Below are positions 3,519-36,014 of a stretch of DNA of 64,000 bases, piece after piece (within the stretch, counting starts at the first letter, position 1; each line of letters starts with the position of its first letter). Source of the stretch: Candidatus Micrarchaeota archaeon. GTDB taxonomy: Archaea > Micrarchaeota > Micrarchaeia > Anstonellales > Bilamarchaeaceae. The notes below the pieces were generated by a model. It was given only the letters and a program-made list of their open reading frames with translations. It did no database searches and was not told the DNA's origin. Location: assembly GCA_038046765.1 (NCBI GenBank), contig JBBSVN010000001.1, positions 18,108 to 82,107 of the forward strand, given 5' to 3'. The translations under genes were made by a program, and so were the position numbers.

Positions 3519-4790
3519 CTAATATCCTTTTTCAAGTAACCATTTCCATAACGGTAAATATTTTATTTTGCCTTTTATTCCGAACCATTCCTCTTCTTTT
3601 TCATCATCATAGTCTTCTGTTATTATGATAAGATTCTGACACTTTAAGTCTCGACTTCCTTTAAGTAGTGCTCTTATTTCCCTATTTTTAGTATCTGGAT
3701 TTGCTAAATCAACACAAACTTGTACGAGTTTACTTATTTTTTCGTTCTCTGTTATTACAAAATCTATTTCTTCATTTTGCTGATTTTTCCAATAATAAAA
3801 TTTAAGTTTGCCTGATATTTGTGCTTTCTTTAACTCCATAGCAACTGTGTTTTCATAAATTTTTCCTTTATCTTGGCTCATTTTAAATGCCTTGGCAGTT
3901 ATGAAACCGTTATCGAAGCAGTATACTTTCTTATTTGATCTAATCTGTTCCTTTACCTTAAAGGAAAACTTATAAATTCTAAACAGTATAAAAGTTTCTT
4001 CTAGATATTTTATGTACTTGTCAATCGTGTGAATACTTTTACATACAGTTACGTCTTTAAGTGTATTGTAAGAATAAAATGCAGCTAAATTAGATATCAA
4101 ATAGTTTGCTAGATTTTCAATTCTTTGCGGGGCTCTTATTTTATATCTTTTTACGATGTCCTTGTATATGATCGCATCAAAAAGTAGGGAAATATAGTTT
4201 ACTAAGTCCAATTTTTTTACTAAAGGTTCTGGATATCCACCTGTACTTAAAAATTCATCAAGAGCCGCCTTTTTTTCATGATTAGTTAGTTCTGTTGTCT
4301 TTAAATTAAGAAACTCTCTAAAAGAGAAACTGAAGATGTATATCGGTATATATCTTCCAGTTAAGTGGGTTGCCAGTTCTCCGCTAAGTAAATTTGAGTT
4401 ACTTCCAGTAATTACTAATTTATAATTGCTTCTCTGAAGTCTATTTACAAAAAGTTCCCATTTGGGTAAGTTTTGTATTTCATCTAATACTATATAATCC
4501 GGATCATTATACCTTGTTTTTATTTTTGTTAAAAGTTCATCATAATCCTTTAATTCTACTAATTTTTCATTGTCAAAGTTAATGTAAGCAAAAGTTCCAA
4601 ATTCTTTTAATCGGTGTATTGCAAATGTTGATTTGCCCGCTCTTCTTGGCCCTATAATTACCCTAATAAGATTATCTTCGGGTTTTTTGAAGTTTGCGTC
4701 ACGTTGAATATAAAGCTCATTTACCTTTATTTCTAATTCTCTCTTTTGCATCTGTAATATGTTGTTTAGCTCCTCAGTCATATAAATCAT
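3519..4790 (-). CDS. AAA+ ATPase, AAA_14/DUF4143 family
   Basis: Walker A GPRRAGKST, Walker B LDEIQ, TGSNS, GGYPE, ENTVA, EIDFV, PLWKWLL; probable start ATG 4790 or 4781. Confidence 0.9.
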   Translation of the reverse strand: MIYMTEELNNILQMQKRELEIKVNELYIQRDANFKKPEDNLIRVIIGPRRAGKSTFAIHRLKEFGTFAYINFDNEKLVELKDYDELLTKIKTRYNDPDYIVLDEIQNLPKWELFVNRLQRSNYKLVITGSNSNLLSGELATHLTGRYIPIYIFSFSFREFLNLKTTELTNHEKKAALDEFLSTGGYPEPLVKKLDLVNYISLLFDAIIYKDIVKRYKIRAPQRIENLANYLISNLAAFYSYNTLKDVTVCKSIHTIDKYIKYLEETFILFRIYKFSFKVKEQIRSNKKVYCFDNGFITAKAFKMSQDKGKIYENTVAMELKKAQISGKLKFYYWKNQQNEEIDFVITENEKISKLVQVCVDLANPDTKNREIRALLKGSRDLKCQNLIIITEDYDDEKEEEWFGIKGKIKYLPLWKWLLEKGY

Positions 4791-4792
4791 AC

Positions 4793-4844
4793 TGCACAAA
4801 AGTTTATAAATTTGTGCATTACGATATACAAAGTGCACAAAAGT
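4793..4844. promoter_or_regulatory. Repeated operator-like motif upstream of the ATPase
   Basis: TGCACAAAAGT at 4793 and 4834, inverted TTTGTGCA at 4811, flanking a TTTATAAA box. Confidence 0.5.
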
Positions 4845-4902
4845 AGTTAAAATTTGGGTATAAAGCATAACCTTTTAAACACTTTTTGACACATATTTGG
4901 AT

Positions 4903-6831
4903 ATGACAAGAAGGCTCACTCCAAGTAGTGGCAATGTAATACCTATAGAAGCAGCTAGAACTAGAGCTTTTGCCGTCAAAACTGACCAAGATCACAAATC
5001 TTTAGGGATAGTTACTGGAGAAAGGGGAGGTTATGAACTAAAAAAATCTATTTTCAAGAACAATGGCACAACTGAATTATTTTTAGCAACTGATTTAAAA
5101 ACTAATAAAGAGGTAATCGTAAAAAGAGTAACTCTTAAGGCAGAAGATTCAACCTTTAAACTTGCCCCAAGGGAATTTGACATTATAAACTATCTAGATC
5201 ATCCAAACGTGGTTAAAGCGATTGATCAGACTATGACATCGAAGGAAAAAGACGGAAACCAGATAACCGAGTATTTCTTAGTAACAGAAAAAGTCGAAGG
5301 CAAAAATCTAAGGGAACATAGCGCTTTTGGCACTAATTTTTCAGAAGAAGAAAAAATAGAAATTATAACACAGATTTTGCAGGCACTAGAATATCTTCAT
5401 GATAGTGGCGTAATACACAGAGATGTAAAACCAGAAAACATAATGGTTCATAAAACAGAAGATGGAAAAATAAATGTAACTTTGGTTGATTTTGGCGTTA
5501 CGCTTACTGCAGTTAGTACTGGTTCAACCGCGCTTCTTCCAATATTTAGTAAGGGTTTTACTGCTCCAGAAGTTTTAGCATGTGCATCTGATGTTGATGG
5601 CAGAGCGGATATCTATTCTACTTCAGCAGTTTTGTCCTGGATTTTTACCGGTTTAGATGGAACAGATATGCAAACTAAATTAAGGACCAAAGAAGAAATT
5701 GACTGCATTGATGGTCAACTTTTAAGTATAATCAAAAAGGGATTAAAGGCAGACCCTGAAGAAAGATATCAAACTGCAAAGGAAATGAAGGAAGCTTTGG
5801 TTAGTGAGATAGAAGAAGGGGCAGATATTGCCGTAGTTGAACCCATTGACAAAGTGAATAAAATTTATCGAGAACTTAAAGCAAGAAAAATGGAATTAAG
5901 AACTAAGTATGCACAATTGGATCGTTCATTTAAGGAAAGCATGAGAAAAACTTTGAAATATGTTATCCCGTCATTTGTAGTTTCTGTAGCTAGTCTTGGT
6001 TATATTTTGACTGAACAACCAAAAGGACTGGCAGCTTTGCTATCTAGTATTGGAGTCTTCTTAGGTTTAACTGTTGCTGGTTTAGTGTTGCATTTTAAGT
6101 CCAAGGCTAACGCGGATAAACTTAAAAATCTGGATGACCTAGAATTACAAATCGGTGATCTTGCATCAGATTTAGAAGAAATTGAAACAATTCGGGATTT
6201 GGATTCTAAGCGTGATCTGTTTTTAGAAGCTAGATCAGAATCTTTGCTTAGGCTTAAGTCTTCAAAAAAAGCATTAAAAGAAGCAAAAGTCAAAACACAA
6301 GACACGGATGTTGTCGACTGGTTCCTTCTTGACCTTACAAGTAAAGAAATCCAAGTCCATAAAAACTTAAACTTAGAACAAACTCTTGCATTAGAAAGAC
6401 TAGATTTTGTAATTTTACCAAATAGTGTTATTGATGAGATTTTACAAGATGGTGCGTTAAGAGAAAAATACACAAAGCTAGGTTTATTCCCCTGCAGGAC
6501 TGGAACATGGGTAGAACTTGATGGAGAAAATTGTATAATAAAACAGGATGGAAAAAGTAAGAAAACAAAACTGCATATACAAGATGGCTGGTATAAAAAA
6601 GATAACCTCGGCATTCCTTCTGGCGAACCTACAAATGAAAATGATCAAGATGCAAGATTTTTGTGGAGAACTAAAAAATATGTTGGCCCTTTGGTCCGTG
6701 GCTTCGACTGGAACGACTTCAACGGGCAGGATGTCGGTGCCCTCAGAAGGCTCGACGGCGGTTACGGGGTGGCGTGCATTTCTCGAGCCAAATACGAAGA
6801 AATTTTGGCTCGATCTATTCAAAATGAATAA
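4903..6831 (+). CDS. Hanks-type Ser/Thr kinase with two TM helices, coiled coil and C-terminal putative DGR-variable domain
   Basis: VIVK, HPNVV, HRDVKPEN, DFG, TAPE, DIYS motifs; two hydrophobic segments around aa 355-398; C-terminal domain similar to 35139-36014. Confidence 0.85.
   Translation: MTRRLTPSSGNVIPIEAARTRAFAVKTDQDHKSLGIVTGERGGYELKKSIFKNNGTTELFLATDLKTNKEVIVKRVTLKAEDSTFKLAPREFDIINYLDHPNVVKAIDQTMTSKEKDGNQITEYFLVTEKVEGKNLREHSAFGTNFSEEEKIEIITQILQALEYLHDSGVIHRDVKPENIMVHKTEDGKINVTLVDFGVTLTAVSTGSTALLPIFSKGFTAPEVLACASDVDGRADIYSTSAVLSWIFTGLDGTDMQTKLRTKEEIDCIDGQLLSIIKKGLKADPEERYQTAKEMKEALVSEIEEGADIAVVEPIDKVNKIYRELKARKMELRTKYAQLDRSFKESMRKTLKYVIPSFVVSVASLGYILTEQPKGLAALLSSIGVFLGLTVAGLVLHFKSKANADKLKNLDDLELQIGDLASDLEEIETIRDLDSKRDLFLEARSESLLRLKSSKKALKEAKVKTQDTDVVDWFLLDLTSKEIQVHKNLNLEQTLALERLDFVILPNSVIDEILQDGALREKYTKLGLFPCRTGTWVELDGENCIIKQDGKSKKTKLHIQDGWYKKDNLGIPSGEPTNENDQDARFLWRTKKYVGPLVRGFDWNDFNGQDVGALRRLDGGYGVACISRAKYEEILARSIQNE
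6682..6813 (+). other. Putative DGR variable region plus downstream hairpin
   Basis: 61/93 G+C over 6685-6777 inside an AT-rich gene; NNC codons; perfect 10-bp stem TCGAGCCAAA (6783-6792)/TTTGGCTCGA (6804-6813). Confidence 0.6.
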
Positions 6832-6893
6832 TTAATTTTGAATATCGCGCGAAACTTATGAGAAATTATTCGTAGATAAAATCTAAAGTTTGT

Positions 6894-13575: not shown

Positions 13576-13761
13576 ATGGCAAAAAGTTGGGTGCGTGGTC
13601 TTGTTTTTATTGTTGCGGTAGCGATTGGTTACTTTGTAACTACTATCTGGGGGCAATTACGGCCTGAAGATGATTCAACTACTGTTTTAATCGTTGGAGT
13701 TGTAGTTACGCTAGCCTCTTTTGTTGCGATGTATTTTATGACTAAAGGGGGCGGAGATTAG
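13576..13761 (+). CDS. Small two-TM membrane protein
   Basis: 61 aa; GGAGGT SD upstream. Confidence 0.7.
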   Translation: MAKSWVRGLVFIVAVAIGYFVTTIWGQLRPEDDSTTVLIVGVVVTLASFVAMYFMTKGGGD

Positions 13762-13907
13762 TATAAATTAATCCAATACTCCTCAATTTGAAAAAAGCGC
13801 AAGTTCTAAATACAAACCTGTCGGAAGCGACATTAATCATTTACTCATGGTCGCTTCAGCAGAACACGATTATAAACAATTTTTCAATTATCTCTTCTTA
13901 ACTCCTT

Positions 13908-14411
13908 CTATATTTTCAACTTCTTAAAAATCCGTTCAACTCGTTTCCTAGTCTTCTGATCATTTTTAACTAAAACAATTCCCTTGTGGGGTTGCCCGTA
14001 AACAAGTACATAGTTCTTAGGCATTTGGTTCATGAACGCAAGTGCAGTAATGTCTTCCTCGCCTTCTATTAAAACTCCGCAATGGTGCTTAAGTAATTCT
14101 TTCGCATCATTAATCAATTTCTTAGAAAGCGTCCCCGCCGGGTTCTTGTATTTGACCATCTTACCAAAACTTTTTTTCATTACATCTACGTATATTTTGG
14201 GTAAGTCTCTTCGCATATATTTTAAGTCAAACACACCCACATATGGTTTTACTCCTAGAGCTAAAAGCGCAAGTGTTGAAATGTCCCCTACGCTTATTAT
14301 TTTGTATCTTTTACTAATTATTTTTATTTCCTGTAAATCCGCATATACTTTTCCGAATGGTCTTTTTAGTTCCTTTCTAATGCTTGAGTTTATTAGAACG
14401 TAATCATTCAT
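13908..14411 (-). CDS. GTP-dependent dephospho-CoA kinase (DUF359)
   Basis: ELKRPFG, SVGD, NPAGTL, GEEDITAL, VYGQP.KG motifs. Confidence 0.9.
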   Translation of the reverse strand: MNDYVLINSSIRKELKRPFGKVYADLQEIKIISKRYKIISVGDISTLALLALGVKPYVGVFDLKYMRRDLPKIYVDVMKKSFGKMVKYKNPAGTLSKKLINDAKELLKHHCGVLIEGEEDITALAFMNQMPKNYVLVYGQPHKGIVLVKNDQKTRKRVERIFKKLKI

Positions 14412-14463
14412 ACTATTTACTTTACAAACTTATTTTTTAAACTCGAGCGAGTATGTATTATCT

Positions 14464-15642
14464 ATGCGTTCTAAATCAAAACTTAGTAAAAACACCAAAT
14501 TACTTGCCTTAACTAGTTTTCTAGTAGATATTAGTTCAGAAATGGTTGTTCCCTTATTACCCTTTTTTGTTACAACTATTTTGGGAGCGCCATTATTTGT
14601 TCTAGGTTTAATCGAAGCCGTGCGTGAATTAACTGCGAATGTCGTTGGCATATTTTCTGGAATAATCAGTGACAAGCTTGGAAAGAAAAAGAATATTATA
14701 ATTCTTGGGTATTCGCTTTCTGGTTTAATGAAAGTTTTTCTTGTTACTGCTACAACTTGGTTTAGTGTACTTCCAATTGTATTTTTTGAACGGGTTGGAA
14801 AAGGAATAAGGGAAGCTCCGCGTGATGCGTTAATTACGCATTCTGAACCAAAAGAAAATTTAGGTTACGCGTTTGGATTTAGAAAAATGTGTGACAACGC
14901 GGGCGCATTTATTGGGCCCATACTTGCGACATTTTTACTTACTATTCTTATTTCGCAAGGAGTTGATTATGCTTATCGGACAATCTTTCTTATCGCATTA
15001 ATTCCAGCTGCGCTTTCAATTGTTGTTCTATTATTTTTACAAGAAAAAGATGGACATAAGGCAACTGATGGCGTAAAAACAATTATCGGTGATGTCCTAA
15101 AAATTCCTAATTTTAAAAAGTTTGTCTTTTGTATGTTTTTGTTTTCGCTTGGGCAGTTTGCAATCTCGTTTTTTCTGATTCGTGCTGCAGATTACCTGAC
15201 TTTGTTTTTGATTCCGGTCGTATACTTAGCGTATAATGCAATGTACACTGTACTTTCTCTTCCTGCGGGTTATTTTACTGATAAAGTGGGTGCTAAAAAT
15301 TCTCTTTTATTTTCTCAAGTGTTATTTCTGACAGTTCTTTTAGGATTCTCATTTTTTGCAAACTCTGTTAGTTTATTCCTATTTTTTGGATTGTTTGGCG
15401 TGTTTATGACTATAAACGAAACCGCTCCGCGTGTTTTTTTAGCTAAGAGCGTTGATCATAAACACTATGCAAGTTCGATCGGTTTATATCAAGGATTAAT
15501 TGGTGTTGCTGCACTTCCAGCTAATATTCTAGCTGGTTTTCTATACACGACAAAAATACTAGATGTTCCAGCGTCTTTTGTATTTTCGATAGTTACAACT
15601 GTTTTATCCATGCTGCTGCTTTTGATTTTGGTTAAAGAATAA
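14464..15642 (+). CDS. MFS transporter
   Basis: ~12 TM; DISSEM, SDKLGKKK, ERVGKGIREAPRDAL. Confidence 0.92.
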   Translation: MRSKSKLSKNTKLLALTSFLVDISSEMVVPLLPFFVTTILGAPLFVLGLIEAVRELTANVVGIFSGIISDKLGKKKNIIILGYSLSGLMKVFLVTATTWFSVLPIVFFERVGKGIREAPRDALITHSEPKENLGYAFGFRKMCDNAGAFIGPILATFLLTILISQGVDYAYRTIFLIALIPAALSIVVLLFLQEKDGHKATDGVKTIIGDVLKIPNFKKFVFCMFLFSLGQFAISFFLIRAADYLTLFLIPVVYLAYNAMYTVLSLPAGYFTDKVGAKNSLLFSQVLFLTVLLGFSFFANSVSLFLFFGLFGVFMTINETAPRVFLAKSVDHKHYASSIGLYQGLIGVAALPANILAGFLYTTKILDVPASFVFSIVTTVLSMLLLLILVKE

Positions 15643-35138: not shown

Positions 35139-36014
35139 ATGAGCACAACAATTCAACAACCAACTCAAAGAATAAGAGGCCCAAAGTTAGAAGTGTTCAT
35201 ATCAAGATTATATGGTCTTCCTTTTGATGAAGAATTAGCTAGAGCAGATAAAGATAATAGAGTTATTGTTTCTAGTAAAAGACTAAGTTCAGCCCTAATT
35301 GGAAGCGATGAATGGAAAGCAATCAAAAAAGCTTTTGCTTGCTGGTCTGGAACTATGACTGCTTATGTTGAACCAAATGTAGAACTTGGGCAAGCTGCTA
35401 GAAGACTTAGCGATCTTGGAGATTTTCCTAAGTTAAGTAAAAATCAGTACGAACATGCTATTGTTTATACTGACCCCCAAACAGGAAATGATTGGATCTT
35501 TCCAATTCCAGAAAAATATTTAAGAGTAAAAAATGGAATTTTAGTTATTGAGCACCCTGATTATGGTTTAGATAGAGAAGGAACAAATAGATTAGTTTTA
35601 CCAGTATCAGTTGAAAGAGTTGATTTAGTTGAAGGTTTTCCAGTTCGAAATGGTTGGTATTTACCAGATGCGATTCATGGAATACCTCAAACAAGTCAAG
35701 TAGATTATTCAACTAAAGCTAGACACTTGTGGAGAGTTGATAAAAGAGTTGGTCCGGTTAGGCTCGGCTACGACGACATGGGCGGCATCGACGACATTAA
35801 CGGGCGGTATGTCGACTTTGACGATAGGCCGTCCAATGGTTACGGGCTGGTAACAGAGGCCAGCGAAGCTGGCACGCCGGCTACAAAAGACGAAATTAAA
35901 ACTAGTAGACAATCTAGCGTCATTCAGTTAAATGAAGGAGACTCCGAATTAATAATTCGAGGAAGCGATGCAAAAATTGAAGCAGCTTTAAGACTTTTAG
36001 AAAGTTTGAGATAA
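35139..36014 (+). CDS. Orphan protein with putative DGR-variable domain
   Basis: Shares NGWY..D..HGIP...ARHLWR....VGP...G with the kinase C-terminus. Confidence 0.7.
   Translation: MSTTIQQPTQRIRGPKLEVFISRLYGLPFDEELARADKDNRVIVSSKRLSSALIGSDEWKAIKKAFACWSGTMTAYVEPNVELGQAARRLSDLGDFPKLSKNQYEHAIVYTDPQTGNDWIFPIPEKYLRVKNGILVIEHPDYGLDREGTNRLVLPVSVERVDLVEGFPVRNGWYLPDAIHGIPQTSQVDYSTKARHLWRVDKRVGPVRLGYDDMGGIDDINGRYVDFDDRPSNGYGLVTEASEAGTPATKDEIKTSRQSSVIQLNEGDSELIIRGSDAKIEAALRLLESLR
35748..35873 (+). other. Putative DGR variable region plus GAA-triloop hairpin
   Basis: 60/100 G+C over 35751-35850; NNC/NNT codon run; GCCAGC-GAA-GCTGGC at 35859-35873. Confidence 0.65.

Follow-up and report, generated by a model that had tools for sequence, protein, structure and literature searches.

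A predicted membrane-anchored kinase with a C-type-lectin-fold end, a very probable remote DGR target in a Micrarchaeota genome

The DGR targets closest to the gene described here are the Ser/Thr kinase-CLec variable proteins reported from cyanobacteria, some of them remote from their DGR (Vallota-Eastman 2020, PMC7517822). As in our gene, K1, an N-terminal Hanks kinase is followed there by a C-terminal CLec that bears the VR and is diversified in trans, paralogues with and without a TR match are dispersed, and the same two hypotheses, sensor or substrate choice, have been put forward. Kinase-CLec targets are also reported from Thiohalocapsa (PMC10907252) and appear in DGR catalogues (PMC5758913, PMC11661182). 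Regarding DPANN archaea, remote genes with only a VR and CLec folds have been described (PMC4372165, PMC5006420). Nevertheless, the word 'kinase' is absent from the main text of Paul 2015 (PMC4372165), and in the supplements of Roux 2021, two files outside the search apart, it occurs only for a viral CotH-like target. The other DGR literature considered was the Roux preprint, PMC8867640, PMC8632793 and PMC10053308.

We analysed K1 in a window of 64,000 nucleotides (G000:C1:18108-82107), taken from a Candidatus Micrarchaeota genome (G000) of 1.5 Mb in 20 contigs. The features of the gene and of the loci related to it are collected in Table 1.

Table 1. Coordinates of K1, its parts and the related loci. 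Plain numbers are positions in the window; positions preceded by C1 or C4 are those of the contigs of G000.
Feature	Position	Strand	Remarks
Upstream element, likely promoter and start region	4862..4905	+	Shared with the paralogues K2, S1 and S2
K1 gene	4903..6831	+	642 aa: kinase, helix, membrane hairpin, long helix, CLec domain
Hanks-type Ser/Thr kinase domain	5077..5772	+	Pfam Pkinase, aa 59-290, E 6.9e-35
Predicted membrane helix 1	5953..6009	+	aa 351-369; hydropathy 1.63, marginal
Predicted membrane helix 2	6034..6090	+	aa 378-396; hydropathy 2.25, basic flank after it
Long helix, coiled-coil-like stalk	6091..6279	+	aa 397-459; model pLDDT about 45-72
C-type-lectin-fold (CLec) domain, predicted	6301..6828	+	Large family of archaeal DGR target proteins without a name
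K1 variable region (VR)	6686..6773	+	aa 596-623; template TR_B, G000:C4:71944-71857, minus strand
IMH-like G-rich 3' end of the VR	6766..6773	+	Contains 4 of the 19 differences; the same in each of the three TR_B targets
Perfect 10-bp hairpin	6783..6813 (6783-6792/6804-6813)	+	11-nt loop; inside the coding sequence
Second, AT-rich inverted repeat	6816..6844	+	Across the stop codon; 14-nt arms, 93% complementary
Non-coding relic of the ancestral 3' end	6848..6889	+	Shares 40/42 nt with the 3' end of paralogue S2
DGR_A	C4		Target TPA 13620-14492, TR_A about 13424-13332, then RT
DGR_B	C4		Target TPB 72205-73197, TR_B 71944-71857, then RT; TR_B lies between TPB and RT
S1, S2, stand-alone CLec paralogues	C4:193285-193926 and C1:2147-2791		GC-rich VR-like ends without template

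A preliminary description of K1, made from the sequence of the window, had proposed that the stretch 6685-6777 is a DGR variable region supplied in trans by a DGR elsewhere. Both proposals were borne out by a search of the genome for the template, in which a short-word BLAST and an adenine-tolerant scan located TR_B adjoining an RT on contig C4. Over the 88 nt compared, all 56 non-A positions are identical (56/56) and 19 of the 32 A positions are changed, so that 19/19 mismatches fall on TR adenines (P 3.9e-11), which is the A bias to be looked for. K1 is almost certainly a DGR target.

By codon position the changes are distributed 12/6/1, that is, 18 of the 19 affect position 1 or 2, and 14 of the 19 are A to G. 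Fifteen lie inside an 81-nt core, ahead of the fixed IMH end. The four differences of the G-rich end are likely, from their sequence, the IMH/IMH* difference, with a predicted function in that role, and this end resembles the IMH/IMH* pair of DUSEL4 (PMC4372165). Counting all the adenines of TR_B, 8.5e16 protein variants are possible, or about 6e15 with both IMH codons kept constant. The VR follows TR_B colinearly, and no introns need to be assumed in the template; as for TR_A, it was ruled out as the template of K1, with a score of 59.5 vs 147.5 for TR_B.

TR_B is the template common to three genes, namely the cis target TPB and the kinases K1 and K2 (C4:137322-139124). The VR of TPB has 17 A changes and no non-A change in 88 nt, and that of K2 has 20 A changes and no non-A change in 84 nt. 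The VRs of K1 and TPB differ at 15 sites, all of them TR adenines, and those of K1 and K2 also at 15, of which 13 are TR adenines; directly upstream of the VR, K1 and K2 are identical in 225 of 286 nt (79%). Because the differences fall at TR adenines and the flank is only 79% identical, each VR was rewritten on its own once the genes had diverged. Beside these targets, a further stand-alone paralogue in the window, TPA2 (35139-36014, VR 35749-35851), is a remote target of DGR_A; its VR matches TR_A with a 9-nt insertion and two non-A changes, and its GAA-loop hairpin is kept. We also observed that the contig of run X3 differs from the reference both inside and just before TR_B (L027:1434, 1456), which is either a template variant or an error.

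The composition of the VR had first drawn attention to it, as an island of about 66% G+C rich in NNC codons, and this holds: the segment 6685-6777 has 65.6% G+C vs 35.1% in the preceding part of the ORF, a value reached by 34 of the 1,513,639 stretches of 93 nt in the genome, and 15 of the 28 VR codons end in C vs 67 of 594 upstream. The stand-alone paralogues S1 and S2 carry patches of 61% G+C that match neither present template; used as a control, these GC-rich ends score at or near the shuffled level against both. Therefore, a GC-rich patch alone is no proof of a live target. S1 and S2 are orphans of a TR that was lost or is unassembled.

The 3'-end of K1 differs from what had been described in two respects. 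The ORF does not end in the GC-rich island, since 19 codons come after it, and the hairpin, a perfect 10-bp stem as claimed, is not located beyond the ORF but within it. The stem starts 10 nt after the VR, and a comparable one was found in 4 of 5000 random 60-nt windows. Further downstream, the relic of the ancestral 3'-end lies about 70 nt beyond its position in the paralogues (in a paralogue contig, 6776 is joined to 6847), and the roughly 70 nt of K1 sequence that displace it carry both the hairpin and the second inverted repeat. At the other end of the gene, the identity of the upstream element to K1 is 41/44 nt in K2, 36/37 in S1 and 23/25 in S2. Palindromic and direct-repeat motifs occupy window positions 4783-4854, in the short gap between K1 and a divergent AAA_14-DUF4143 ATPase gene, and are likely control sites of the latter gene. 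A scan for sigma-70 promoters and terminators gave chance-level results and is not apt for archaea.

Regarding the kinase domain, K1 keeps K74, E91, H172, D174, N179, D196, E223, D236 and R288, so the Lys-Glu pair, HRD, Asn, DFG, APE, the Asp of subdomain IX and the Arg of subdomain XI are all present, and these catalytic residues are invariant across 16 aligned kinases. The glycine-rich loop is degenerate, with a single glycine in aa 48-60 and no GxGxxG, as it also is in K2, K3 and the kinase of another genome of the order, G014. By its retained catalytic residues K1 is a Ser/Thr kinase, as had been claimed, and of the Hanks type, and phosphotransfer is predicted.

The C-terminal domain of K1 is homologous to the cis targets TPA and TPB. 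We modelled aa 467-642 from an alignment of 24 sequences (pLDDT 90, pTM 0.87), and the structural alignment against 48,161 chains placed AvpA (5ioo) first, with 135 aligned residues, rmsd 3.5, 8% identity and a Z of 7.6, which is in the middling range of the tool's own scale; TaqVP had a Z of 5.5. C-type lectin folds fill the best 50 rows of the list. Foldseek gave no match for the model at E 0.001, and the family-profile search of PDB sequences gave nothing meaningful, with no 5ioo chain at E 10. The VR corresponds to model residues 130-157 and ends in the last strand; in AvpA, as reported, the VR lies before and in the last strand, which is coded by the IMH (PMC5006420). Because the match list is uniform and the VR is placed as in AvpA, the model supports a CLec fold despite the middling Z, in agreement with the DGR-diversified ligand-binding module proposed at the outset.

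The family to which this domain belongs numbers 1291 representatives (E 0.001), and it is matched in 83 of the 176 genomes of the order. Pfam had no informative family for the domain and its 24 relatives, and no FGE-sulfatase match was found in the 24 family members. In the ESM Atlas only nameless clusters were returned, the best one (0.93) mostly archaeal, apart from an Lcl_C cluster at 0.80, which is only a lead. Members of the same family are also found fused to C-terminal ankyrin repeats (L156:246-1661 of genome G082, and P0011) and in tandem two-domain forms (P0003, P0021).

Between both domains, a pair of hydrophobic segments is present in all four kinase-CLec proteins (K1, K2, K3 and that of G014). 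Both helices are clear in K2, and helix 1 reaches only a marginal value in K1 (1.63) and G014 (1.27). A basic flank follows helix 2 in three of the four, with 6 K/R in K2 and 4 in K1 and G014; in K1 these 4 K/R stand with 2 D/E in the 15 residues after the helix. No signal peptide or hydrophobic N-terminus was found in any of the four. In the full-length model of K1, which has a pLDDT of 67 and is of low confidence in its middle and C-terminal portions, a 5-residue turn connects helices at 313-368 and 374-459, the second one continuing as a coiled-coil-like stalk, which agrees with the coiled coil and the two transmembrane helices of the preliminary description. Kinase and variable domain are thus likely both cytoplasmic, attached by a two-helix membrane hairpin, as judged from the hydrophobic pair and the modelled helical hairpin; we regard this same-side arrangement as quite probable. 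The complex prediction for kinase and CLec scored 0.00 and has no weight either way.

Kinase-CLec fusions are rare, as only G000 and G014 have them in the 176 genomes of the order, among the matches listed. Thirty kinase loci were fetched from the search of these genomes, and a single one outside G000 carries the CLec domain, namely the 643-aa protein of G014 (profile E 4e-4), whose one-contig genome has no RVT_1 match. From the domain side, 150 of 296 matches were listed and 8 with long frames were fetched, none of them a kinase fusion. A homologue search with aa 440-642 returned only K1 and K2 among proteins of 353-1124 aa, a further one covered only proteins of 838-2390 aa and not the range of interest (500-700 aa), and a scan of the genome collection with the K1/K2 domain gave no match. 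In K3 (C8:49751-51379, region to 51937) the CLec is shortened and interrupted by a single stop, after which the frame runs on into a 178-aa ORF.

In a tree of 24 kinase domains, a single clade for the four fusions was rejected (p-AU 1e-70), and hence a single origin of the fusions was ruled out. K1 groups with a CLec-free kinase of G000, and the G014 kinase with a CLec-free one of genome G128; K2 and K3 are on long branches. Because the four kinase domains form no single clade, the fusion was made more than once, and repeated domain grafting is the simplest reading of these sequences. Hanks kinases are common in family f1 (55 of 98 genomes vs 3 of 77 in the other families of the order), many of them with membrane segments and varied C-terminal domains.

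RVT_1 matches above the cut-off were found at two loci of the genome, both on contig C4 and each with the order target, TR, RT. The closest relatives of these RTs are DPANN RTs, several with adenine-only TR/VR pairs of their own; the nearest are titled Micrarchaeota (77, 76, 68 and 66% identity), and 79 of the best 80 are archaeal by title. The Pelota of G000 is archaeal, and the genome is that of a DPANN archaeon, probably of the Micrarchaeota; because DGRs are known to move sideways, the RT relationships are no proof of the phylum.

Both RT genes are in fact out of frame, each of them split where an (AG)7 run occupies the same loop (C4:12866-12879 in L028 and 71405-71418 in L027), the halves being otherwise open with the catalytic motif present. 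The frameshift of the DGR_B RT is also present in the contigs of runs X1 and X3; these two separately assembled contigs bridge the run without a gap, and therefore an assembly artefact was ruled out. Only three runs of at least 6 AG units exist in the genome. The third (AG)7 is part of 24 nt that repeat the RT_B loop exactly (C4:124925-124948); it lies close to where a possible small ORF begins, ahead of a 242-aa gene, and is either a relic or a second switch. The RTs of relatives carry G runs or AG runs at the same loop. RTs with a G7+ or (AG)5+ run were out of frame in 9 of 12 cases (7 of 10 excluding G000) vs 0 of 49 without such a run, the runs being clustered in the closest relatives and thus not independent; 86 loci were examined, of which 61 were scored and 25 were dropped for an absent flanking motif. 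This pattern fits a phase-variable switch that would be currently off, and it is rather probable that the DGR of K1 can still be switched.

Neither cassette has an Avd gene, and the best bAvd matches are below the cut-off and elsewhere in the genome; Avd is reported in 74% of DGRs, 26% being without it (PMC5758913). One small gene with a weak bAvd match, resembling a four-helix bundle, lies between the genes of the B and D subunits in an A/V-type ATPase operon (L143:1465-1866). Regarding the present variability, the K1 VR is identical in all three spanning runs (X1, X2 and X3, of one study, X1 being possibly the source), and run X4 has no coverage of it; the TPB VR is identical in run X6, of another study. 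These comparisons were made on contigs, which hide rare variants, and thus refer to a stable consensus only. The best-matching runs are groundwater metagenomes, and none of RNA is listed. Of the claim that the segment is hypervariable, its nature as a DGR VR stands, and variability in the present tense is weakened by the out-of-frame RTs and by the identical VR in three assemblies.

We propose that K1 is a remote target of the DGR on C4 and probably a membrane-anchored receptor kinase facing the cytoplasm, the predicted CLec at its tip binding a ligand and switching the kinase. Reverse transcription of the TR_B RNA would be error-prone at adenines, and its product would home in trans to K1 as cDNA by means of the G-rich end and the hairpin. 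The rewritten loop would then bind an intracellular protein, either viral, host-derived or self, and the clustering of bound receptors would lead to trans-phosphorylation. Rewriting would take place in bursts, a whole RT being made only in cells in which the AG run has slipped into frame. Taken as a whole, a cytoplasm-facing receptor kinase with a CLec rewritten in trans and activated by clustering seems to us slightly favoured, and the role of K1 as a sensor a little short of an even chance. A wider version is rather doubtful: that this DPANN lineage has repeatedly grafted DGR CLec domains on membrane kinases with both ends cytoplasmic, so that intracellular binding specific to each lineage gates or aims phosphorylation and RT slippage switches its renewal.

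A CLec acting as a docking arm would also be compatible with the same-side topology; the DGR would then rewrite the choice of substrate, possibly against host or viral proteins. The free swapping of C-terminal domains in the kinase group of K1 agrees with this, and the same alternative is raised for the cyanobacterial targets (PMC7517822). Nevertheless, a long stalk (aa 397-459) separates the CLec from membrane and kinase, and an active kinase redirected at random to proteins of the cell itself would probably carry a cost; we consider a docking arm unlikely. The topology itself would be otherwise if only helix 2 spanned the membrane, in which case the CLec would sample the host surface or a virus and signal inward. 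Helix 1 is indeed weak in K1 and G014, a cut-off of 1.7 calls one helix in K1, and the usual interpretation of DPANN DGR targets is attachment to a host (PMC8632793). However, the basic residues after helix 2 (6 K/R in K2, 4 in K1 and G014), the two clear helices of K2, the tight hairpin of the model and the stand-alone family members, listed without a hydrophobic N-terminal leader, all argue against an outward-facing receptor, which is the least probable reading considered here.

It may also be that K1 is a bystander or a fossil, its homing-competent CLec end having come from an S-type paralogue and having been rewritten merely by its match to TR_B, with the DGR now dead and the VR frozen. 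The out-of-frame RTs, the cassettes lacking Avd and the VR invariant in the assemblies would be expected in such a case, and so would the many orphan paralogues without a matching template, the decayed K3 and the G014 fusion without an RT. However, two different kinases track TR_B without any non-A change in 88 and 84 nt, K1 has acquired a 70-nt end with a perfect hairpin, and the RT halves have no other lesion, the link between repeat and frameshift recurring in relatives. We find such a bystander improbable, about as much as the docking arm, and return to the cytoplasm-facing receptor kinase.

If the wider version above is right, each cell lineage would have a new intracellular binding specificity, aimed at viral or host proteins. 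DPANN DGR targets are mostly orphans, and K1 joins its VR to an enzyme whose activity is easily measured, so that phosphorylation offers a test of VR specificity. Kinase signalling coupled to DGRs, as found in bacteria, would have arisen independently in archaea on the basis of another CLec subclass, and the diversity of signalling would be linked to what is likely an on/off switch of the mutator. G000 also displays the birth and loss of targets, by a shared upstream element, a grafted kinase cassette, a new 3'-end with a hairpin, and orphan and decayed copies.

In simple-sequence contingency loci, phase variation results from a repeat whose length sets the reading frame. The RT genes resemble them in that the frame depends on the length of an AG or G run within the gene, and differ from them in that the mutator is itself what is switched; a reversible switch would be expected, with no in-frame allele of the strain among the contigs. 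Neither an archaeal kinase target nor a repeat switch in an RT was found in the literature covered, which did not extend to the DPANN survey of Paul 2017; that survey reportedly may include DPANN targets of a regulatory kind and RT genes with repeat tracts.

Compared with the cyanobacterial kinase-CLec proteins as reported (PMC7517822), K1 differs in its archaeal host, in a CLec closest to AvpA and not of the FGE-sulfatase type, in an RT out of frame at a repeat, and in the membrane hairpin and stalk between its domains, since most of the cyanobacterial ones are predicted to be cytosolic. With the Nanoarchaeota DUSEL4 DGRs and AvpA (Paul 2015, PMC4372165; Handa 2016, PMC5006420) it shares the internal VR, the G-rich IMH, the hairpin in the coding sequence, the several DGRs per genome, the remote genes with only a VR and a CLec whose last strand is coded by the IMH. 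However, AvpA is a stand-alone domain and the K1 CLec is fused to a kinase, with 8% identity and no sequence match to 5ioo, and the hairpin of K1 has an 11-nt loop vs the GRA triloop of DUSEL4, the cis targets TPA and TPB having GAA loops. In the clade-5 'antigen sensor' targets of multicellular bacteria, as described, the CLec is likewise joined to signalling or effector domains, kinase included, and membrane helices can leave it cytoplasmic (Dore 2024, PMC10907252). Against these systems, what is likely new in K1 is the archaeal host, the AvpA-like CLec, the probable same-side topology, the repeated grafting and an RT that is likely switched off.
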